A program made the translations under genes and the position numbers. Source: Bacillota bacterium (lineage in GTDB: Bacteria; Bacillota; Negativicutes; JBAXTZ01). From it: a DNA stretch of 64,000 nt. The stretch covers positions 21,444 to 85,443 of the forward strand of contig JBAXTZ010000004.1 of assembly GCA_037129925.1 (NCBI GenBank). Direction: 5' to 3'. Shown piece after piece: positions 13,606 to 62,539 of this stretch. The notes under the pieces were generated by a model. That model was given only the letters and a program-made list of their open reading frames with translations. It had not been told where the DNA came from and searched no databases. Position 1 is the first letter of the stretch, and each line of letters starts with the position of its first letter.

Positions 13606-15090
13606 ATGGTAAAATCTCCTGATAATAATTCATTGCCGCGGAGCATGTATTATCTTTCCGGAACCGAGATGTGGGAACGTTTTAGCTATTATGGCATCAT
13701 GTCCGTTCTCATTCTCTATTTAACCAAAGGTTTAGGAATACCCGACGACCGCGCCGGACTGATTGTCGGCACGTATATTTCTTTTACCTGGATGTCCCCG
13801 GTTATGGGCGGTTGGCTGGCAGACAAATTTCTGGGACAAGTCAACGCTATTCTGATTGGCGGAACGGGTATTTTCTTAGGGAATTTAATTTTAGCAATCG
13901 GTATCGGCGGAATTAATGGATTTTTCTTAGGTTTAGCCGTAATCATTATGGGTACCGGACTGTTAAAATCTTCGATATCGGTAATAATCGGCGAACTATT
14001 CCCGGATGGTGACCCGCGTATTGACCGCGCTTACACAATTTTTTATCTATTTATCAATATCGGTGCAACGCTCTCGGCCTCTATCGCCGAGATAGCTCAA
14101 CGTAGCGGCAATTTTGGTATCGGTTTTGCCTTTTCTACTGGTGGTATGCTCTTGGGATTACTAATTTTTTGGCGCGGAATGCGTACTTTCAAAAAAATCG
14201 CCCGCGTCAACTCCAAGCCGTCGTTACAAGAAAAATCCTTTGGAATCTCTAACAAATTCTGGATCGGTTTACTGTTGGTTGTTTCGCTTCCAGTAGTAGT
14301 ATTTTTCTTTTTGTTTTCCTCAATTACAAATTATTTTATGCTCTTGAGCGGTGTAGTGGTTGTCGCTACAATAATCGGTTATTGGATCAAGTTCAAATCC
14401 CGACGCGACCGATTGGGCATCATGGCGATATTAATCTACGTTGTTTACCAAATCGGTTATTTTTCACTATATCAACAAGTCAGCGACTCGATTATTTTGT
14501 TTATGGACCGGGTCGTCGATATGCAAATTTTGGGCGTGTCCATTTCATCGGGAGCGGCAAGTTTACTGTTTAACAGCGCATTCATTATTGTTTTAGCGCC
14601 GTTACTGGCGTGGATCTACACTCAACTTGGCAAAATCAAAAAAGAACCATCCACCCCGGTGAAATTTTTGTTTTCACTGTTGGCAATGGCGCTTAGTTTT
14701 CTGATTTTTGGTTTATCGGCCCACGGTTCACTTGGTGGTGCAATGGCATCAATCTGGCCGGTAATCTTAGGTTTTTTTGTTTTCACAATATCTGATGTCT
14801 TGAGCGGTCCGATAAGTTTGTCGTTAGTTGTTCAACTATCGCCAAAAGAAATTACCGGCTTCATGATGGGCGCAATGTTCTTTTCGATGGCTGCTGGTGG
14901 TTATGTTTCCGGATTGCTGACTGCTTGGTCAGGAATGGACGGTAGCGCTACCGCAACTGTTGGATTATACGCCGGGAAATACACCAACCTATTCTTATAT
15001 TGTGCCGGCGCGATGCTGGTTATCGCCATTCTCTATATTTTTGTAATACCGTTTCTCAAAAAAGTGCACAAAGTCTGCGCCGACGAGTAG
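13606..15090 (+). CDS. POT/PTR2 family di-/tripeptide:proton symporter
   Basis: ATG at 13606 after GGAGG. PTR2 signature ERFSYYGIMSVLILYLT and about 14 TM helices. Confidence 0.85.
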   Translation: MVKSPDNNSLPRSMYYLSGTEMWERFSYYGIMSVLILYLTKGLGIPDDRAGLIVGTYISFTWMSPVMGGWLADKFLGQVNAILIGGTGIFLGNLILAIGIGGINGFFLGLAVIIMGTGLLKSSISVIIGELFPDGDPRIDRAYTIFYLFINIGATLSASIAEIAQRSGNFGIGFAFSTGGMLLGLLIFWRGMRTFKKIARVNSKPSLQEKSFGISNKFWIGLLLVVSLPVVVFFFLFSSITNYFMLLSGVVVVATIIGYWIKFKSRRDRLGIMAILIYVVYQIGYFSLYQQVSDSIILFMDRVVDMQILGVSISSGAASLLFNSAFIIVLAPLLAWIYTQLGKIKKEPSTPVKFLFSLLAMALSFLIFGLSAHGSLGGAMASIWPVILGFFVFTISDVLSGPISLSLVVQLSPKEITGFMMGAMFFSMAAGGYVSGLLTAWSGMDGSATATVGLYAGKYTNLFLYCAGAMLVIAILYIFVIPFLKKVHKVCADE

Positions 15091-15100
15091 ATTTAACCGG

Positions 15101-15916
15101 TTACAAAAGCAGGCATTGTGCCAAAACATCAACACATATTTCGCTTATACTTTTGCCGTCGGCATCGATTGTGATGTCGGCGGTTTTTTCGTATTGTTCA
15201 GACCGCAAGTGATATAAACTCCTAGTTTCATCTGCCGTGATTCCCTCAGCTAAAGGGCGCCCGCTCGACTCTCTAAGCCGCTCTAATATTGTCTCAATAT
15301 TCAGTTTCAACCAAACTATTATGCCATTTCGTTGAAGATTGCGGCTATTGTTGGTATCCAAAATAGCGCCACCGCCGCAAGCAATAACACAATATTTCCG
15401 CTCGGACAAATCGCCTATTACGGCGCGTTCGTATTCACGAAATGTCGATTCACCTTGTTCGGCGAATATTGACTGCACGCTTCGGCAATGTAGGTTCTCG
15501 ATTTCCGCGTCAGTGTCGACAAAAGCATACCCGGAAAGTCGTGCCAATTCTTTGCCAATTGTGGTTTTTCCACAAGCCATGAAACCGGTTAAAACGATGT
15601 TTTTCGGAATGCAGTGGCGCATCTGAATATTCCGGCTCTGTTGCATAATAAATTGGAACAATTCAACTATTCGACCAGTATTTTCTCTATCTGTAACCAT
15701 ACCGGCGATGCGCTCGACTATTTCCTGTTCGCGCTGTGGTTGGTAAATGGCTAATTTGTTGAGCCATTTATATTCACCGACTGCCCGGACAGCCGCTAGC
15801 CTCCGCTGCATGGCGGCGACAATTTCCTGGTCACATTTATTAATTTCCGAACGCAATTTTTCAATATCAGCCACTTTTACCACCACCTTGCGATAGATTA
15901 GCGCAAAACTCTCCAA
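15101..15916 (-). CDS. aroK: Bifunctional chorismate mutase (AroQ class) / shikimate kinase
   Basis: N-terminal approx 90 aa helical CM motif (LRSEINKCDQEIVAAMQRRLAAVRAVGEYK). This is followed by a shikimate kinase P-loop (GFMACGKTTIG) and the SK fold. The true start is probably a GTG slightly downstream of 15916. Confidence 0.8.
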   Translation of the reverse strand: MESFALIYRKVVVKVADIEKLRSEINKCDQEIVAAMQRRLAAVRAVGEYKWLNKLAIYQPQREQEIVERIAGMVTDRENTGRIVELFQFIMQQSRNIQMRHCIPKNIVLTGFMACGKTTIGKELARLSGYAFVDTDAEIENLHCRSVQSIFAEQGESTFREYERAVIGDLSERKYCVIACGGGAILDTNNSRNLQRNGIIVWLKLNIETILERLRESSGRPLAEGITADETRSLYHLRSEQYEKTADITIDADGKSISEICVDVLAQCLLL

Positions 15917-16949
15917 TTTCGATTAGTGGAAACTGCCGCTCCAGATACCGATCCCGCGCTATCGGTAAAATAAAACTAATCATTCCGCCGCTGTTCTTTT
16001 TGTCACCCAGCATCAGTTTCGGCAACATTTTGCAATCAAGGTGTGTCAAACTAGGATCAATTTTAGTACGCTTAATAATTGCAAATATTTCCTCGGCATA
16101 GTCATCGCTAATTACTCTCAACGCTTTTGCCAGCAACGTTTCATAATACATTCCCAGCAACACCGCCTCGCCATGCAAATAGCATTTATAACCAGTGGCA
16201 ACTTCCAAAGCATGGCCAAAGGTATGCCCGATGTTAAGAATTTTACGCAACCCAGTCTCGGTTTCATCTTCACTTACTATCTTAGCTTTAATCCGGCAAC
16301 AGGCGCTAATCAAAAAAGTCATCGTTGCCAAATCACATTCGCAGATTTCGTGGTAATTATTAATGATATAATCCAGCAGCCAGGCTTCAATCAACCCATA
16401 CTTAATTATCTCGCCGAGGCCGGAGCAATATTCACGCGCCGGCAGACTGCGCAACAAACTAATATCAATATAAACCGCTTGCGGTTGATAAAAACTGCCT
16501 ACGATATTTTTCCCGAATTCAGTATTTATCCCGGTCTTGCCGCCGACGCTACTATCAATTTGGGCAAGTAGTGTCGTCGGCACCTGAATATAGCGAATGC
16601 CGCGCATATAAATCGACGCGCAAAAGCCGCCAAGATCGCCAATCACACCGCCACCAAAAGCAATAAGCAAAGATTTTCTAGTCATAGCAAACAGCGTCAT
16701 GGCCTCAATGATTTCAGCAACGCTGTTGAATGATTTCATTGATTCACCCGGAGCGATAATATGAATCTTATGCTCCATCGACTGCAACGCTTGTTCAAAA
16801 TAACCCGGCTGGGATTTGTTTATCTTGGCATCGGTTAGCACAAATATTTTGTCAACATCAACCAAATCGCTTGCTAAATTCTTGGCTAAATGTTGACCGA
16901 CATAAATATTATAACTGTTCTGGTTCAGTTCGACAGTGATCGTTTCCAT
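15867..16949 (-). CDS. aroB: 3-dehydroquinate synthase
   Basis: 360 aa with NAD-binding GGGVIGD and metal-binding motifs. Overlaps aroC by 25 nt. Confidence 0.9.
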   Translation of the reverse strand: METITVELNQNSYNIYVGQHLAKNLASDLVDVDKIFVLTDAKINKSQPGYFEQALQSMEHKIHIIAPGESMKSFNSVAEIIEAMTLFAMTRKSLLIAFGGGVIGDLGGFCASIYMRGIRYIQVPTTLLAQIDSSVGGKTGINTEFGKNIVGSFYQPQAVYIDISLLRSLPAREYCSGLGEIIKYGLIEAWLLDYIINNYHEICECDLATMTFLISACCRIKAKIVSEDETETGLRKILNIGHTFGHALEVATGYKCYLHGEAVLLGMYYETLLAKALRVISDDYAEEIFAIIKRTKIDPSLTHLDCKMLPKLMLGDKKNSGGMISFILPIARDRYLERQFPLIEIGEFCANLSQGGGKSG

Positions 16950-18064
16950 CGTTCCTCAATCTCCTCAATACTGTCAGCGCCAAACAGCCGCAGAAACTCT
17001 TCGCAGACAACCGTTGCCGCGACCGCTGCGCCGACAACTGCTGCCGCTGGAACGGCGCAGACATCGCTGCGTTCAGTATTGGCAGTAACTGCACAACGGT
17101 GGGCAATATCCACCGAGCGTAGCGGTTTGGTCAACGTCGGAATGGGTTTCATGGCACAGCGAACAATTATCGGCTCGCCGTTACTCATACCGCCCTCAAT
17201 GCCGCCGGCGTTATTGGTGGCACGATAATAGCCCTGGGGTTCGGAGTAAAATATTTCATCGTGAACCGCCGAGCCTGGTAAACTGGCACACTCAAATCCT
17301 CTGCCAAACTCCACGCCCTTTATCGCCTGAATACTTTGTAAGGCAAAGGCCAATTTGGCATCAAGCTTTCGATCCCAATGTACATAACTTCCCAAACCGA
17401 CCGGTGTCCCGGTTATCACAACTTCAAAAATGCCGCCGACTGATTCACCTGCGGCTTTAGCGCCATCAATCACTTCTATCGCCTTCAACTCTGCTTGCTG
17501 GTCAGACATAAATAGTGGCGACTGCAACACTTTTGCCATATCCCAACCAGCGTCGACAGCGCTTGTTGATATTCCGCCGATGTTGACAACGTGAAAACCA
17601 ACTCGAACAGCAAACCGCTCCAATAACTGACGGCAAATACTGCCAATAACAACCCGGGTGGCTGTCTCACGGGCGCTGGCGCGCTCTAAAACATTACGCA
17701 CATCGGTGAAACGATATTTCTGCGTCCCAGTCAGATCAGCGTGTCCAGGGCGTGGCGCGGTAACGCGCTTTCCATCGTTAATCACAGCCACTGGATTCAT
17801 TTGCTCGTGCCAATTGGCATAATCCTTGTTTTCAATCATGAAGCTAAGCGGACTTCCCAACGTCATCCCGCCGCGCATTCCTGATAGAATTCTAACGCGA
17901 TCGGTTTCGATTGCCATCCGTCCGCCACGACCATAACCGGACTGACGGAGGGCAAGATCCCGGTTGATTTGCTCAATATCAATCGGCAATCCGGCTGGCA
18001 ATCCTTCAATTATGCCGGTCAGCGCCGGTCCATGCGATTCCCCACCCGTCAAATATCTAAGCAT
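16925..18064 (-). CDS. aroC: Chorismate synthase
   Basis: MLRYLTGGESHGPALTGIIEGLPAG is the canonical AroC N-terminus (start taken at the second in-frame ATG). Confidence 0.93.
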   Translation of the reverse strand: MLRYLTGGESHGPALTGIIEGLPAGLPIDIEQINRDLALRQSGYGRGGRMAIETDRVRILSGMRGGMTLGSPLSFMIENKDYANWHEQMNPVAVINDGKRVTAPRPGHADLTGTQKYRFTDVRNVLERASARETATRVVIGSICRQLLERFAVRVGFHVVNIGGISTSAVDAGWDMAKVLQSPLFMSDQQAELKAIEVIDGAKAAGESVGGIFEVVITGTPVGLGSYVHWDRKLDAKLAFALQSIQAIKGVEFGRGFECASLPGSAVHDEIFYSEPQGYYRATNNAGGIEGGMSNGEPIIVRCAMKPIPTLTKPLRSVDIAHRCAVTANTERSDVCAVPAAAVVGAAVAATVVCEEFLRLFGADSIEEIEERWKRSLSN

Positions 18065-18094
18065 TATTTTTGTCTCCCACACTTCTGAAGTTTA

Positions 18095-18185
18095 ACTGTT
18101 GCCGGTTAAAGGCTAAAGGTTAATAGTAGCCAGTCCTTACACTTTCAACTTTGAACTATTCGCTTTTAACCCTTCACAAAGCGCT
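18095..18185 (-). other. Structured intergenic element within the aro operon (copy 2), homologous to the element at 22030-22148
   Basis: Shares the ggttaaag(g)ctaaa(r)gttaatagta module, a 3' partner that can base-pair with it, and a gaaagtg-type repeat core. See findings. Confidence 0.35.
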
Positions 18186-19010
18186 TCACGCTTGCGCGTA
18201 TGAGCCAAATACTTTTACCCAGGCGGTTTGTGCTTGGATTGCCGCTAACACTGCCTTAATTTCCGGCTGGTCTTGATGCCCGACGAAATCAATAAAGAAA
18301 ATGTATTCACCGACTATTTGCTTTGCTGGTCGCGACTCAACCCGGGTCATATTAATATTCATTTCTGCAAAAATCTTGAATACTCCGTACAAGCAACCGG
18401 CATGATCCTCGGAAAATGCAAAAGCAATTGAAGTTTTATCATTACCAGTACACTTGCTAGCGGCTTTTCCGATATACAAAAATCGCGTCTGATTGCAAGG
18501 ATTATCTTGAATATTTTCTGCCAACACGTTTAGTGAATACATATCTGCGGCTTTGACACTCGCCACTGCACCGTGATAATCACCGCCAGCCAGTGCTAAT
18601 TTGCAGGCTTGCGAGGTGCTGGTGCAGCTGACAAGTTCGATGCGTGGATGTTCACGACGGAAAAAGTTGCGGCACTGCTCCAATGCCTGTTCATGTGAAT
18701 ATACATAGCGAATTTCGTCCGCCGACTTACCACTGCTTAGTAAACAGTGCTCAATATTCAAGACATACTCACCGCAGACGGTAGTTTTTTGCAAACCAAG
18801 TAATAAATCCATCGCTGTCGCAACGGCGCCATAAGTAGAATTTTCGACCGGCAACATTCCCCCGTCAACTACGCCCGCTTCCACCCCATCGATAATATCC
18901 GCAAAACTGGACATCGCTACAAGTTTTACGTCATTGCCAAAGCGTTCGCTGTAAACAACTGCCGCCTCATAAGTAAATGAACCGATCGGACCAAGATAAC
19001 CTAGTTTCAT
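18186..19010 (-). CDS. pheA: Prephenate dehydratase (PDT + ACT domains, no CM domain)
   Basis: 274 aa. PDT N-terminus MKLGYLGPIGSFTYEAA and a C-terminal ACT domain. Confidence 0.9.
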   Translation of the reverse strand: MKLGYLGPIGSFTYEAAVVYSERFGNDVKLVAMSSFADIIDGVEAGVVDGGMLPVENSTYGAVATAMDLLLGLQKTTVCGEYVLNIEHCLLSSGKSADEIRYVYSHEQALEQCRNFFRREHPRIELVSCTSTSQACKLALAGGDYHGAVASVKAADMYSLNVLAENIQDNPCNQTRFLYIGKAASKCTGNDKTSIAFAFSEDHAGCLYGVFKIFAEMNINMTRVESRPAKQIVGEYIFFIDFVGHQDQPEIKAVLAAIQAQTAWVKVFGSYAQA

Positions 19011-19078
19011 TACAAGCTCCTTTTCCCAAGTTTTATTTTTGTAAATTATCGCCTACTATCTATTTACAGCGCTGAGCG

Positions 19079-19570
19079 CTATTTACTTCCAAAAACCGCT
19101 TCCAACACTCGCTGACAGTTGCGGCTGATTTTTGTCGGCAGCGCGGTTGTTGAAAACCATTTCAACTCCACCGCTTCACCATCGAGCATCATTTCGGTTC
19201 CGGTGAAATCTTTGCAAAGATAGACGTGATCGACAATAAAAACTTCATCGCCGTTCGGATAGACCACCCGGTGCTCTGGTCCGGAAAATATTCCGAAAAA
19301 CTTCAACGCTGTCGCCTGTAGCCCGACTTCTTCATACATTTCCCGCGCCGCGCATTGCTCGACAGTCTCGCCCATTTCCATAAATCCGCCTGGATAACAC
19401 CAATTGCCGGTGTCGGCGCGTCTTTGCATTAACGTCTGGTCGCCTTTTAGAACAATTACACTGGCAGTGCAACCGATAAACGGCTTCTTGCCAATCATCG
19501 AGCGAATATACTTTATGTAGTCAACAACCTCAGGCGGTTGAGATTCCGTTATACTGACCGTATCCATCAT
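19079..19570 (-). CDS. NUDIX hydrolase
   Basis: Nudix box GGFMEMGETVEQCAAREMYEEVG. 163 aa. Confidence 0.8.
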   Translation of the reverse strand: MMDTVSITESQPPEVVDYIKYIRSMIGKKPFIGCTASVIVLKGDQTLMQRRADTGNWCYPGGFMEMGETVEQCAAREMYEEVGLQATALKFFGIFSGPEHRVVYPNGDEVFIVDHVYLCKDFTGTEMMLDGEAVELKWFSTTALPTKISRNCQRVLEAVFGSK

Positions 19571-19581
19571 TAATTAAGCTC

Positions 19582-20880
19582 CTAACTCTTTACAACTTTG
19601 CTTAACAACTCAGCAAACCCCGGGAAGGAAATATCAATACACTCGTCATTGTCAATACTGGTCTGCCCGTCAGCAAACAATCCGGCGATTGCCGCTGCCA
19701 TTGCAATCCGGTGGTCATGATAGCTTTCGATAGCCGCTCCGTGCAACTTCTGCCCGCCCTGAATTATCATGCCATCAGGCAATTCTTCAATCACCGCGCC
19801 CATTTTGCGAAACGCGGTGACGATCGCGGTTATCCGGTCTGATTCCTTGACCCGCAATTCCTGCGCCCCGGTTATCGTGGTTTTTCCTTCAGCAATCATT
19901 GCCAGGACAGCGATGATCGGAATTTCATCTATCAACCGCGGCATAATATCGATGCCGATTTCGACGCCCTGCAACTTGCCAGTGCGCACGATAATATCAC
20001 CGGATATTTCGGCATTGTTCTCTGTTATATTATCAAATTCAATATTTGCGCCCATAATTCTCAAAACGTCAATTATCCCGGTACGTGTTGGATTCAAACC
20101 GACATTCCGGATAATCAATTCAGAATTCGGCAACAGCGCCGCGGCTACTAAAAAAAATGCCGCTGACGAAATATCACCAGGGACAACTATTTTTTGTGCA
20201 ATCAGTTGTTTTGGGGCGAGTATTGTCGCTTGGACTCCGGCGCTTAGAATATCAACACCAAAAGCCCGCAGCATCCGCTCGGTGTGATCGCGGGATAATA
20301 CTGGTTCAGAAACTCTAGTGCGACCATTAGCGTATAATCCGGCAAGCAAAATCGCCGACTTTACCTGAGCGCTGGCGACAGTGGACTGCCAGTCTATAGC
20401 TATTAAATTCCCGCCGCAAATCGTAAGCGGTGCACAACATTTTTCACCAACTCCGGACACCTCGGCTCCCATCAATCGCAGTGGCGTAGCCACTCGGTTC
20501 ATCGGACGATGTTGCAAAGAGGAATCGCCAATCAATCTACTCGTAAATGGCTGTCCGGCAAGGATGCCACTCAACAGCCGCATCGTCGTTCCGGAGTTTC
20601 CAGCATCGAGCGCGGTGGACGGTTCGTTTAAGCCGTATAAACCCTTCCCCTCAACTTCAATCAATTCATTGCGATTGTTAATTTCTATACCCAATTTTCG
20701 AAAACAAGCTATTGTACTTAAACAATCTTCGCCTTGCAAAAAGCCGGAAATTTCACTCTTGCCCTGACTAATCGCCGCTAACATTACCGCCCGATGCGAG
20801 ATTGATTTATCGCCCGGCACAGTTATTTCGCCACGAATAGTCTTTGCGGGATTAATTATCAGCATAGCGTTCATCTCCAT
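19582..20880 (-). CDS. aroA: 3-phosphoshikimate 1-carboxyvinyltransferase (EPSP synthase)
   Basis: VPGDKSISHRAVMLAA and full-length EPSPS pattern. The start may be one of the downstream in-frame ATGs. Overlaps the tyrA 3' end. Confidence 0.93.
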   Translation of the reverse strand: MEMNAMLIINPAKTIRGEITVPGDKSISHRAVMLAAISQGKSEISGFLQGEDCLSTIACFRKLGIEINNRNELIEVEGKGLYGLNEPSTALDAGNSGTTMRLLSGILAGQPFTSRLIGDSSLQHRPMNRVATPLRLMGAEVSGVGEKCCAPLTICGGNLIAIDWQSTVASAQVKSAILLAGLYANGRTRVSEPVLSRDHTERMLRAFGVDILSAGVQATILAPKQLIAQKIVVPGDISSAAFFLVAAALLPNSELIIRNVGLNPTRTGIIDVLRIMGANIEFDNITENNAEISGDIIVRTGKLQGVEIGIDIMPRLIDEIPIIAVLAMIAEGKTTITGAQELRVKESDRITAIVTAFRKMGAVIEELPDGMIIQGGQKLHGAAIESYHDHRIAMAAAIAGLFADGQTSIDNDECIDISFPGFAELLSKVVKS

Positions 20881-21982
20881 CTAGCGCTACGTTAAAGCCC
20901 TGATTGCTTAGCAGTTTTCCAGCGGCGCTCTGTTCATTATCGCTGACAAAAGCGATTCGAATCGCTCCATCGACGTTTTCCCGCACATGTAAGATTTCGA
21001 TTTCACAAATATTCAATTTGTTTTCGCCAATTATTTGCGTAAGCTTAGCGATTATTCCCGGCTGGTCTTTGACCGAAACAAAAATATTAAATGCACTCGG
21101 CAAATAATCGCGCCCGTGCTTAGGCAATCCCTCACGCACAAATTTAGCTTTTGCTAAAAAGTCCTGCAAGGCGATGTCGTTTTCGTCAGCAATTAGCGCC
21201 CGCAGCTCGCCAAGCTGCTGTTCGAGCCGCGCCAGTTCCGGCAACACTGCCTGACGGTTCAACAACAATATGTCCCGCCACAGTTCCGGCTGTCCGGCAG
21301 CAATCCGGGTCGTATCCCGAAATCCGCCACCGGCAAATGCCGCAAAATTAATACTATCCCCGGTAGCCAGGGTATTAGCGACCAACGCTGCCGCGATATG
21401 CGGCAAATGGCTGATCCGCGCGACAATTCTATCGTGTTCGTCTGGCGAAATAGTTATCGGTAAAGCACCGATGGTAGTTATTAGTTGCTTTAGTTGTTCA
21501 AGGTGTTGGTAGTCGCTGTTTTCTGAAGGGGTAAGAAAATAGTAAGCATTCTCAAATAGATACGGAGTTGCTGCCCAAAAACCGTTTTTTTCCGAACCGG
21601 CCATCGGATGACCGCCGATAAAGGCAACATTTGGCATACACTCTTTGGCCAGTTCAGCAACATAACCCTTTACGCTGCCGACATCGCTGACGATAAACCG
21701 TCTGCCTTTGGTCAGTATGGCAATTTCGGAAAACAACTCCGCGTATGCGCCAAGCGGCGCTGCAACAACAACCAATCCCTCTTCAATCAGCGCCTCCGGC
21801 AAACTCATAGCAACAACATCGATGGCGCCTTTAGCGAAAGCAGCATCGACATTTTTGCGGTCGCGGTCAAAGCCGCGTATAGTTCCTGAAAAACCGGCAC
21901 TCTTCAACGCCAACGCCAACGATCCGCCGACTAAGCCAATTCCGATTATTATTATATTCTGAAATCCCAACTCCCCACTCAA
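20852..21982 (-). CDS. tyrA: Prephenate dehydrogenase with C-terminal ACT domain
   Basis: Rossmann motif IIIIGIGLVGGS. PDH core and ACT domain. TTG start lies inside a duplicated 21-bp unit. Confidence 0.88.
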   Translation of the reverse strand: MSGELGFQNIIIIGIGLVGGSLALALKSAGFSGTIRGFDRDRKNVDAAFAKGAIDVVAMSLPEALIEEGLVVVAAPLGAYAELFSEIAILTKGRRFIVSDVGSVKGYVAELAKECMPNVAFIGGHPMAGSEKNGFWAATPYLFENAYYFLTPSENSDYQHLEQLKQLITTIGALPITISPDEHDRIVARISHLPHIAAALVANTLATGDSINFAAFAGGGFRDTTRIAAGQPELWRDILLLNRQAVLPELARLEQQLGELRALIADENDIALQDFLAKAKFVREGLPKHGRDYLPSAFNIFVSVKDQPGIIAKLTQIIGENKLNICEIEILHVRENVDGAIRIAFVSDNEQSAAGKLLSNQGFNVALDGDERYADN

Positions 21983-22012
21983 TACTTCTTACTCCCCACT
22001 CAATACTTCTTA
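21971..22012. repeat. Perfect 2 x 21-bp tandem duplication (ctccccactcaatacttctta) spanning the tyrA translation-initiation site
   Basis: Two identical adjacent 21-mers. The second copy holds the TTG start. The first copy supplies an SD-like GAGTGGGGAG about 9 nt upstream and an in-frame TAA. Confidence 0.8.
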
Positions 22013-22029
22013 CGTATGAATACTATTGG

Positions 22030-22148
22030 CTAATGGCTAATGGTTAAAGCTAAAAGTTAATAGTAACAATCTGCAAACCGCTTAAACTTTCACTTTGCAC
22101 ATCTTCCTTCTACTTTTCACTTTTCACCATTAACTTTTAACCGTCAAC
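22030..22148 (-). other. Structured intergenic element within the aro operon (copy 1) between aroF and tyrA
   Basis: The ggttaaagctaaaagttaat (22044) and attaacttttaacc (22119) arms form a long-range inverted repeat. They enclose tandem ttttcac/ctttcac motifs. Low-complexity and repetitive. Confidence 0.35.
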
Positions 22149-23150
22149 CTATATCGCTTCCATAATTTTACGTACCGAATTTACCAACAAGCCGAATTTT
22201 TCCGGTTTGAGTGACTGGGCGCCATCGCACAACGCTTCTTTGGGATTGTGATGTACTTCAATAATCAGTCCGTCAGCGCCAACGGCTATCGCCGCTTTGG
22301 ACAGTGGCGCTACCATCTCCCATTTGCCACAGGCGTGACTAGGATCAACGATAATCGGCAAGTGACTGAGCTGCTGAACCGCCGGAATGATGCTCAAATC
22401 CAGAGTATTACGAGTATAAGTATCAAAAGTGCGAATACCTCGCTCACACAGCACAACTTGATGATTTCCACCGGCCATGATATATTCTGCCGACATCAAC
22501 AGTTCTTCTAGTGTTGCGCACAACCCGCGTTTCAACAAAATTGGCTTGCGGCTTTTGCCGGCGCGCTTTAATAACGAGAAATTCTGCATATTGCGGGCGC
22601 CAATCTGAATCATGTCTGAATATTTTTCAACAATATCAAAGGTTTCCACGCACATAACTTCGGTAACAAACGGCAAACCACTCGACTCCCGCGCTGCCGC
22701 CAATATTGCCAGCCCTGCTTCCTCTAATCCCTGAAAACTGTACGGCGAAGTACGCGGCTTGTAAGCCCCACCCCGAAACATCGTCGCGCCCAAACTTTTT
22801 ACCAAGTTCGCAGTCAACACCATCTGCTCGACACTTTCTACTGAACATGGACCGGCAATAAACGCCTTATGTCCGCCGCCGACTTTAAAATCGCCAACTT
22901 GAACGATGGTGTCTTCCGGATGAAACGCCCGACTAGCCAACTTATACGGATATTGGATGCGCATTACCCGTTCAATGCTGGAATTAACACTCAAAGTCTG
23001 AATATCAATGCGGCTGGTATCACCAATCAAATGTAAAGAATTCCAATGCTCGCCATGAATTTGCTTTACTTCGACACCAAGACGATGTAACTGTTTTTTT
23101 AATTCGGCAACCGATTTTTTCTCAGCGTTGGGTTTTAAAATAATAATCAT
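22149..23150 (-). CDS. aroF: 3-deoxy-7-phosphoheptulonate (DAHP) synthase, type I-beta with N-terminal regulatory domain
   Basis: 333 aa. An N-terminal approx 70 aa ferredoxin-like extension is followed by the DAHPS/KDO8PS-like barrel (GPCSVES, RGGAYKPRTSPY). Confidence 0.9.
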   Translation of the reverse strand: MIIILKPNAEKKSVAELKKQLHRLGVEVKQIHGEHWNSLHLIGDTSRIDIQTLSVNSSIERVMRIQYPYKLASRAFHPEDTIVQVGDFKVGGGHKAFIAGPCSVESVEQMVLTANLVKSLGATMFRGGAYKPRTSPYSFQGLEEAGLAILAAARESSGLPFVTEVMCVETFDIVEKYSDMIQIGARNMQNFSLLKRAGKSRKPILLKRGLCATLEELLMSAEYIMAGGNHQVVLCERGIRTFDTYTRNTLDLSIIPAVQQLSHLPIIVDPSHACGKWEMVAPLSKAAIAVGADGLIIEVHHNPKEALCDGAQSLKPEKFGLLVNSVRKIMEAI

Positions 23151-23227
23151 AAATTCATCCTCAACTCCCTTATTGTAAGGCTATTGTAACATATAATCAG
23201 CTGGACTACATTGGTTTAGCTCTACTT

Positions 23228-23746
23228 TTACAGCGCTGGCATCATCACGACTAACACAGCGATGATTAGCACTACCGTCATAAACGGACGGGCGATATTT
23301 TTCCATTGGCGGTTGCCGTCACTGATCGCCGATACAGCGTGGTTGGCGCTGGACATTGCATAGAATAATAGTACGGCAGTCATTAAGGCAAAGTAAGCGT
23401 TTACTCCCCACTCACACCACCAGGCTATTAATGTAGCGATAGCTACGGCAAGATTGTTTAGTCCGCTTTGGATTTGATAGCGACGGCTGCCACCGCCATA
23501 ACCGGAAACCTTGCTTGCCGTTTCGCCAAAAAACACACTCTCAATCCCGGTCAACCCGGACAACGGTATTATTACCAATGGTGCCAGAATCACAAACCGT
23601 GCCACGGCGTCCTGACCAAAAAAATATGCCAGTTGAAATGCGGCTACGATTAGTACCCAGCGCGCAATCTCTAACATTCCGCAAATTCGTCCACTCATCT
23701 TTTTCAACCTTCTTATCTTCTGCTCACTTGTGATTCGCCTTGGCAA
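23228..23746 (-). CDS. Hypothetical membrane protein
   Basis: Four predicted TM helices. The start may be the internal ATG (MSGRICGML, about 23698), since the long form overlaps the ClC gene by 23 nt. Confidence 0.45.
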   Translation of the reverse strand: MPRRITSEQKIRRLKKMSGRICGMLEIARWVLIVAAFQLAYFFGQDAVARFVILAPLVIIPLSGLTGIESVFFGETASKVSGYGGGSRRYQIQSGLNNLAVAIATLIAWWCEWGVNAYFALMTAVLLFYAMSSANHAVSAISDGNRQWKNIARPFMTVVLIIAVLVVMMPAL

Positions 23747-62344: not shown

Positions 62345-62355
62345 TTTACCGTTTT

Positions 62356-62401
62356 TTACAAAAAAAGACGTTCTCGATAATTTCGAGAACGTCTTTTTTT
62401 G
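62356..62401. terminator. Bidirectional intrinsic terminator
   Basis: 12-bp perfect stem agacgttctcga / tcgagaacgtct flanked by an A7 run and a T7 run. Confidence 0.75.
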
Positions 62402-62539
62402 TAAAAAACATTTAAAAATTTTTGTAAATGCAGGATATTACAGCAATCGTAGCGAATATAGTAAATTTGAAGAAGATTTGTAAAGAAAAAGCTTTTCTCG
62501 ATCATAAAGATAAATATATTTCGAAGGGGATTGTCTATT

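Follow-up and report, generated by a model that had tools for sequence, protein, structure and literature searches.

Two spacers within a minus-strand aromatic amino-acid (aro) operon of an uncultured Bacillota bacterium (Negativicutes; contig JBAXTZ010000004.1 of a metagenome-assembled genome) carry two homologous copies of a single modular inverted-repeat element, and both copies are built from heptamer repeats. The analysis covers the 64-kb stretch of DNA that contains the operon, which is referred to here as the window and whose own numbering is used throughout. The first element lies between aroF and tyrA and the second between pheA and aroC. Our results directly support that they are homologous, heptad-periodic and palindromic, that they occur in one species only and that the orthologous spacers of relatives do not have them. 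The explanation we favor, with a probability of roughly 0.55, is that the elements are lineage-specific repeat DNA generated by heptamer slippage, inverted duplication and copying between spacers, and that they are neutral or have a passive effect on the mRNA. Since the closest relatives do not have the elements, they would therefore be recent repeat DNA rather than a conserved regulatory RNA. The spacers, elements and arms are:

21983-22148, minus strand: aroF-tyrA spacer (spacer 1), 166 nt, delimited by open reading frames (ORFs) and Pfam; GC content 34%, with C at only 9% in mRNA sense; 7-nt periodic throughout.
18065-18185, minus strand: pheA-aroC spacer (spacer 2), 121 nt; GC content 39%; 7-nt periodic.
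22042-22142, minus strand: element 1, 101 nt, with ends GGTTAAAAG...CTTTAACC in mRNA sense; forms a long-range hairpin.
22121-22142, minus strand: 5' arm of element 1 (inverted repeat I1), where the direct heptad array begins.
22042-22069, minus strand: 3' arm of element 1, made of inverted heptads, TTACTATTAACTTTTAGCTTTAACC.
18104-18171, minus strand: element 2, 68 nt, with ends GGTTAAAAG...CTTTAACC; a near full-length imperfect palindrome.

A first-pass annotation, made from the sequence alone, had described two related structured elements in gaps of a minus-strand aro operon. Pfam confirms this gene context and both gaps hold the elements, but the real spacers are larger than the gaps it gave. 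The module it reported as shared is found at 22042-22065 and 18104-18128, and the distal segments it expected to pair with that module are present as inverted-repeat arms. In element 1 these arms (22051-22069 and 22121-22139) are 19 nt long and 84% complementary, with a nested inner pair as well; in element 2 (18104-18134 and 18141-18171) they are 31 nt long, 71% complementary and separated by a 6-nt centre. The GC content of the elements is 32-37%, and their immediate flanks are GTTGAC and ATTAGC in one case and GTGAAG and GGCAAC in the other. Intergenic DNA makes up 6% of this compact genome, and spacers of 166 and 121 nt inside an operon are therefore unusually long.

The similarity of the two spacers is far above chance. 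Their Smith-Waterman scores are 43 versus 17.7 +/- 2.7 and 80.6 versus 29.7 +/- 5.0, and 0/2000 dinucleotide shuffles reach either value. The elements are 75% identical across 68 common aligned positions, the difference between them being a central block of 34 nt. A covariance model (R1) gives 124.9 bits for element 1 and 79.2 bits for element 2, although this model, like the nhmmer profiles, was built from the two copies themselves. A chance likeness of two AT-rich, low-complexity spacers could be argued from BLAST-short, which on its own finds only a 17-nt match (E ~0.1), and from 5' modules that align in more than one register. The shuffles refute it, however, and the near-identical 3' arms, the collinear 5' arms and the identical termini leave it a negligible probability; a profile E-value of 1.4e-14 for copy 2 is not an independent argument, because the profile includes that copy.

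The arms also record the order in which the copies arose. Between the elements, the 3' arms are identical at 26/29 positions (90%) and the 5' arms at 24/31 (77%), whereas partner arms inside one element match at only 19/25 and 22/31 positions (71-76%). Like arms are thus closer between elements than partner arms are within them, and the palindrome therefore predates its duplication; the elements are paralogues, not independent inverted duplications. Judged from these alignments, one palindromic ancestor was probably copied between both spacers, and the 26/29 match of the 3' modules is, at the sequence level, true homology. For the 5' modules MAFFT gives two different registers because the elements are built from heptad arrays, and part of their similarity is repeat-register similarity. 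The extra 34 nt of element 1 correspond to about five heptads and are consistent with later slippage.

Heptad periodicity is the second property common to both spacers. Lag-7 identity is 0.59 in spacer 1 (z = 9.0) and 0.46 in spacer 2 (z = 5.1), and 0/2000 shuffles reach either. Across all 28 intergenic regions that are at least 40 nt long, and in sliding 100-nt windows along the 64 kb, no stretch has a stronger 7-nt periodicity than these two spacers, and they are the only strongly periodic ones; the AATRGT motif is not enriched in the other intergenic regions of the window. If the letters are arranged seven to a line, each element resolves into an array of direct AAWRGTK-type units and then a second array in which like units are inverted (CTTTAAC, CTTTAGC, TATTAAC), and it is because these two arrays stand head to head that the elements have terminal inverted repeats and a hairpin. 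The internal tandem repeat proposed in the first-pass annotation is real, as Tandem Repeats Finder (TRF) resolves several arrays in and next to element 1, while at a score of at least 30 it finds none in spacer 2:

22088-22138, minus strand: degenerate heptamer array of AGTGAAA-type units (mRNA sense), about 7.4 copies; period 7, 63% matches.
22023-22047, minus strand: CCATTAG array of 3.6 copies, directly 3' of element 1; period 7, 88% matches.
21972-22013, minus strand: perfect tandem duplication of 21 nt (3 x 7), GTAAGAAGTATTGAGTGGGGA twice; 100% matches, score 88.

The last two arrays carry the heptad periodicity beyond element 1. That same annotation had held accidental AT-rich filler to be less likely; this stands with respect to homology, but degenerate heptamer repeats explain much of the layout, which brings the elements close to the low-complexity explanation that it had itself allowed for. 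The 21-nt duplication doubles the tyrA Shine-Dalgarno sequence (GGGGAG), the TTG start and the first four codons. The upstream copy is a four-codon mini-ORF, TTG AGT GGG GAG TAA, whose stop lies 9 nt before the tyrA TTG, and the Shine-Dalgarno sequence used by tyrA is in this upstream copy. At the same site, a same-species contig from the Joint Genome Institute (JGI; Ga0194038_1030208, here L010) has a 58-nt deletion relative to window positions 21933-21990, with both flanks 100% identical. Lost with it are one 21-nt repeat copy, the start codon of tyrA and some 16 codons, with the beginning of the GxGxxG loop among them. The length of the deletion does not divide into whole repeat units, and it is either a genuine variant that inactivates tyrA or an artefact of assembly at the repeat.

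Five related lineages were found through TyrA homologues, and their operons and neighbouring genes are syntenic with those of the window. TyrA identity to the window and the lengths of the orthologous spacers are:

Window: TyrA 100%; aroF-tyrA spacer 166 nt; pheA-aroC spacer 121 nt.
L002/L003: TyrA 82%; aroF-tyrA spacer 30 nt; pheA-aroC spacer 55 nt.
L004/L020: TyrA 79%; aroF-tyrA spacer 116 nt; pheA-aroC spacer 4 nt.
L005/L006: TyrA 75%; aroF-tyrA spacer 44 nt; pheA-aroC spacer 36 nt.
L015: TyrA 65%; aroF-tyrA spacer 51 nt; contig stops before the pheA-aroC gap.
L016 (Desulfotomaculum sp. 1211_IL3151): TyrA 55%; aroF-tyrA spacer 18 nt; pheA decayed.

Neither an inverted arm nor the palindrome occurs in the orthologous spacers of any of these five relatives. 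Conservation in orthologous operons, on which the first-pass annotation had made its functional proposal depend, is therefore not seen at any TyrA identity from 82% through 79, 75 and 65 to 55%. The elements are carried only by sequences of the same species, namely a Logan contig (L001), the JGI contig L010 and a second metagenome-assembled genome, GCA_964573965.1 (L017, L018), whose operon is 99.2-99.9% identical to the window and whose two spacers are unchanged. The TyrA sequence of the window is identical to NCBI MEI6285276.1, and identical DNA is found in the Logan assembly of SRR12676973. Some of the material from which the elements are built has a wider distribution: L004 has a recognizable counterpart (~70% over 38 nt) of spacer 1's 5' heptad tract at the 5' end of its aroF-tyrA gap, and the 8-mer GTTAATRG is found repeatedly in aro spacers of both L002 and L004, at a frequency far above that elsewhere in the 187 kb of DNA described below. 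Short heptad tracts thus seem to be an older trait of the aro spacers of this clade, whereas the palindrome and the expansions are species-specific.

Two further observations concern these relatives and same-species sequences. The 268-nt aroA-aroC gap of L016 (11394-11661), read by eye, holds an apparent decayed pheA from which most of the gene is deleted; what is left is an N-terminal MKLGYLGPAGS frame with an IESRPAK-like ACT-domain motif beyond it. In addition, positions 1-17 of L019 (ENA ERZ27300065 k141_692349) open with ATGTGTATAAGAGACAG, which resembles an untrimmed Nextera adapter joined to this species' aroC start region.

Searches for further copies return only the two known sites. 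The nhmmer profiles (whole element and each arm) and the covariance model were applied to 187 kb of DNA, which comprises about 80 kb of this genome (the window with its 8.9-kb and 7.1-kb flanks, L012 and L013) and 107 kb of relatives; a covariance-model search was also the check proposed with the first-pass annotation, and it gives no copy beyond the two. An exact 3'-arm pattern has three chance-like matches in 185,579 representative genomes (the window's own genome not being among them), all in unrelated taxa and lacking the 5' arm, and the one match that was read is coding DNA. In JGI metagenomes this pattern finds one same-species contig at the same locus and one unrelated match, and in viral contigs it has 0 matches. 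The 5'-arm pattern has two chance matches in viral contigs, without the 3' arm and in an apparently coding AT-rich context as read by eye, and among plasmids and phages blastn finds either nothing for spacer 1 or matches at chance level.

These searches bear on the possibility that the element is mobile. In this alternative, a species-specific element resembling a MITE (miniature inverted-repeat transposable element) or a REPIN, with imperfect terminal inverted repeats GGTTAAAAG.../...CTTTAACC, was inserted twice, independently or by local hopping, and the hairpin is a by-product. The defined and identical termini of both copies agree with this, as do the empty sites in relatives, the greater closeness of like arms between copies than of partner arms within a copy, the size of 68-101 nt and the intergenic positions. 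However, no target-site duplication is found at either copy when the flanks are read directly, no third copy is present in the same genome or its relatives over the DNA searched, and no related copy is seen in the representative genomes, metagenomes, viral contigs, plasmids or phages. No transposase or gene of the REP-associated tyrosine transposase (RAYT) type, where REP stands for repetitive extragenic palindromic, occurs among the window proteins scanned or in the gene tables around the locus and its relatives. Furthermore, copy 1 has a 5' arm that seems to be the positional homologue of L004 spacer sequence, which insertion would not predict, and the heptad periodicity reaches outside the element (22023-22047 and 21972-22013). 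Insertion of a mobile element is possible, but we regard it as unlikely.

At the RNA level the two copies behave differently. The first-pass annotation had predicted long-range stem-loops on the mRNA for both gaps, and the predicted hairpin is significant for copy 1 only: the RNA of spacer 1 folds to -30 kcal/mol as a long hairpin, a value matched by 0/200 shuffles (z = -4.2), but that of spacer 2, at -20.9 kcal/mol (z = -0.8), folds no better than its shuffles. Three pairs of the copy-1 stem are lost in copy 2 through its substitutions (TT to CG in the 5' arm and T to C in the 3' arm). RNAalifold gives the two copies a weak consensus fold of 14 pairs and -7.3 kcal/mol, and compensatory changes are seen in 0/14 consensus pairs, a count that has low statistical power with n = 2 copies. 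The 64-kb window has no Rfam 15 match at gathering thresholds; at E <= 10 over 17900-23400 there are two chance-level matches, both outside the spacers. Consensus scans of the minus strand of 21983-22148 and 18065-18185 reveal neither a sigma-70-like promoter nor an intrinsic terminator, and no antiterminator or Shine-Dalgarno-sequestering partner is seen in the spacers. A leader peptide was also considered and rejected: spacer 1 has no ORF of at least 20 aa, and the mini-ORFs read by eye (MVKSEK, MCKVKV and MSGE, each followed by a stop) contain no aromatic codons.

The earlier proposal of an RNA selected for processing, attenuation or protein binding is not supported by these results, as the gaps contain no compensatory pairs, terminator, promoter or Rfam match, and the functional interpretation of the elements is largely unsupported. 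In one form, such selection would act on cis-acting hairpins located 3' of aroF and pheA, which would block 3'-to-5' exonucleases or mark RNase processing and so raise the mRNA of the AroF and PheA segments over that of the downstream cistrons, as REP sequences do at malE-malF. The strength of the copy-1 hairpin is in favor of this, and so is the placement of both copies, which begin 6-14 nt past the aroF and pheA stop codons, in the same orientation, behind genes for regulated branch or entry enzymes. The mechanism itself is well established in other bacteria: protective RNA structures shape the stoichiometry of operon mRNAs at malE-malF and in many E. coli operons (PMC5927463). On the other hand, the hairpins are conserved in no orthologous operon, copy 2 is no more stable than chance and its stem has uncompensated mismatches, and the stems are AT-rich, unlike the GC-rich stems that typically protect. 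The blocking of 3'-to-5' decay by hairpins was reportedly described by Newbury et al. 1987. We consider selected hairpins rather unlikely in this operon; the elements are probably neutral, and the hairpins would have at most a passive effect on mRNA stability.

The periodicity also raises the question of a protein that reads it. Under such a model, heptad-spaced NAG/RGU triplets would recruit an RNA-binding regulator of ring shape or oligomeric form (HutP- or TRAP-like) that tunes tyrA and aroC in response to aromatic amino acids inside a leaderless operon, and the palindromes would be an expanded site. AG dinucleotides do occur at exact 7-nt spacing in both spacers (positions 111, 118, 125 and 142, 149, 156 of spacer 1; 22, 29, 36 and 43 of spacer 2), three UAG triplets lie at 7-nt spacing in the mRNA at 22023-22043 (UAG-N4-UAG-N4-UAG), L002, L004 and L005 have related heptads (AAUAGU, AAUGGUG) in their own aro spacers, and the operon has a promoter but a very short leader. 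However, tandem heptamers give such a periodicity automatically; the arrays vary between species in number, sequence and position and are missing in the first gap of L002 and the second gap of L004; and no terminator or Shine-Dalgarno-sequestering partner accompanies them. The spacing of 4 nt also differs from the 2-3 nt of TRAP sites, and no protein with a HutP or TrpBP domain occurs among the window proteins scanned or is listed around the operons of relatives. A protein platform of this kind is very improbable.

The -10 box of the operon promoter is only ~30 nt from the aroF start, and therefore there is essentially no leader RNA, a state that is unusual among Firmicute aromatic amino-acid operons. 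The promoter TGTTACAAT and the ribosome-binding region GGGTTGAGGA (within window 23151-23227) are conserved in the clade (L002, L004, L005 and L015) with a very short 5' untranslated region, and no T-box or other leader is found upstream of the operon, either in 23151-23227 or in the orthologous regions of these four relatives. Pathway control is probably mainly allosteric, through the ferredoxin-like domain of 3-deoxy-D-arabino-heptulosonate 7-phosphate (DAHP) synthase and the ACT domains of TyrA and PheA, and because the enzymes have their own allosteric domains we infer that a sensor at the RNA level is not needed. By Pfam analysis of the window proteins the operon has nine genes on the minus strand, and its features include:

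23183-23191, minus strand: operon promoter, extended -10 box TGTTACAAT, ~30 nt upstream of the aroF start; kept in L002, L004, L005 and L015.
22149-23150, minus strand: DAHP synthase (aroF) with N-terminal ferredoxin-like regulatory domain (DAHP_snth_FXD).
20852-21982, minus strand: TyrA with ACT domain; TTG start at 21982-21980.
19582-20880, minus strand: 5-enolpyruvylshikimate-3-phosphate (EPSP) synthase (aroA).
19079-19570, minus strand: NUDIX hydrolase.
18186-19010, minus strand: PheA with ACT domain.
16925-18064, minus strand: chorismate synthase (aroC); true ATG at 18064.
15867-16949, minus strand: AroB.
15101-15916, minus strand: chorismate mutase-shikimate kinase fusion (CM-AroK).
15056-15080, minus strand: terminator-like hairpin with T-run after the CM-aroK gene, from a terminator scan; also conserved after aroK in relatives.

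The hairpin and T-run at 15056-15080 are likely to be the end of the operon. The NUDIX hydrolase gene lies between aroA and pheA in the window and in L002 (7436-7927); the operons of L004 and L005, although syntenic in other respects, do not contain it. Elsewhere in the window (62351-62409), two perfectly inverted 27-nt arms, both with A and T runs, enclose a 5-nt loop; this repeat is located between an LPP20-domain gene and a DUF1861 gene and resembles a strong bidirectional terminator.

Slippage, inverted duplication and copying, the explanation we favor, can be arranged as a series of steps. Heptamer tracts in the aro intercistronic spacers of the clade would first have expanded by replication slippage, and an inverted duplication (template switch) would have made one tract a palindrome. 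The whole palindrome would then have been copied into the second spacer of the operon, after which the copies would have diverged, with spacer 1 gaining about five heptads and its other tandem duplications. On the polycistronic mRNA, the resulting stem-loop may be neutral, or it may act as a passive barrier to 3'-to-5' decay or as a cistron separator; the elements would not be amino-acid-responsive regulators. Several points weigh against this explanation. The two strains compared (the window and GCA_964573965.1) show no difference in repeat copy number, and slippage is thus not seen under way. Two copies with identical termini in separate spacers are also expected of a mobile element, and a dispersed family may exist elsewhere in the genome, of which the search for a third copy covers about 80 kb. 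Finally, the presence of both copies in one operon and of related heptads in the aro spacers of relatives could reflect selection and not a shared mutational history.

If slippage, inverted duplication and copying between spacers did produce the elements, they are a small and clean case of how intercistronic spacers grow by these three processes in succession. They would also call for caution in the motif-based discovery of RNA elements, as their hairpins mimic regulatory RNAs yet are unconserved. The elements would gain in weight only if the AroF/TyrA or PheA/AroC ratio were governed by the hairpins, or if the heptad arrays were bound by a protein.

Among known systems, the HutP and TRAP sites share with the elements periodic NAG triplets inside an aromatic amino-acid operon. 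A HutP site consists of NAG-N4 triplets, and the TRAP site in the Bacillus aro/trp supraoperon of (G/U)AG triplets with 2-3 nt spacers. TRAP binds 9-11 such triplets, whereas here most triplets read AAG or NGG and the predominant spacing, at period 7, is 4 nt. HutP recognizes two clusters of three UAG, 4 nt apart and overlapping a terminator; the spacers have one cluster of three UAG, no second clean one and no terminator. The elements further differ from both in having no adjacent terminator/antiterminator, no cognate protein seen, irregular triplets and no conservation in relatives. The mycobacterial interspersed repetitive units (MIRUs) of Mycobacterium, the subject of Supply et al. 1997, are reportedly repeats of 40-100 bp in the intercistronic regions of operons, oriented with the operon, and are similar to the elements in this placement and orientation. 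However, MIRUs are direct tandem units at ~40 loci, and their short ORFs share bases with the neighbouring stop and start codons; neither feature is found here.

Bacterial MITEs (Correia, RUP, bcr1 and ERIC-type) are alike in size, imperfect terminal inverted repeats, intergenic location and empty sites in relatives; the elements differ from them in having no target-site duplication, no dispersed copies detected, an internal heptad periodicity and one arm that is apparently ancestral to the locus. With REP/REPIN sequences (for example at E. coli malE-malF) they have in common an intercistronic hairpin repeat located 3' of the upstream cistron, no target-site duplication and possible protection from 3' exonucleases. 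REPs, however, are short GC-rich stems (20-40 nt) that occur tens to hundreds of times alongside a cognate RAYT (IS200/IS605-like) transposase, in contrast to two AT-rich copies of 68-101 nt and no RAYT among the window proteins scanned.

A further comparison is with heptanucleotide repeats, which are the most abundant long simple-sequence repeat (LSSR) units in prokaryotes and have been ascribed to polymerase slippage (Mrazek 2007, as cited in PMC4679880). LSSRs, the cyanobacterial short tandemly repeated repetitive (STRR) sequences and the TAACTGA repeats of Beggiatoaceae (PMC4679880) resemble the elements in their tandem head-to-tail units of period 7 in non-coding DNA, next to stop or start codons and also inside operons, in a sporadic and lineage-specific spread, in plausible slippage and in direct and rarely inverted sets. 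Here the units are degenerate (63-88% matches, only the 21-nt duplication being perfect) and unrelated to STRR or TAACTGA, the arrays are short (3.6-7.4 copies), and they are seen in two spacers of one operon instead of genome-wide, with direct and inverted arrays joined as a palindrome. The elements are thus a new and very local case of a known kind of sequence, that of heptanucleotide and palindromic intergenic repeats.

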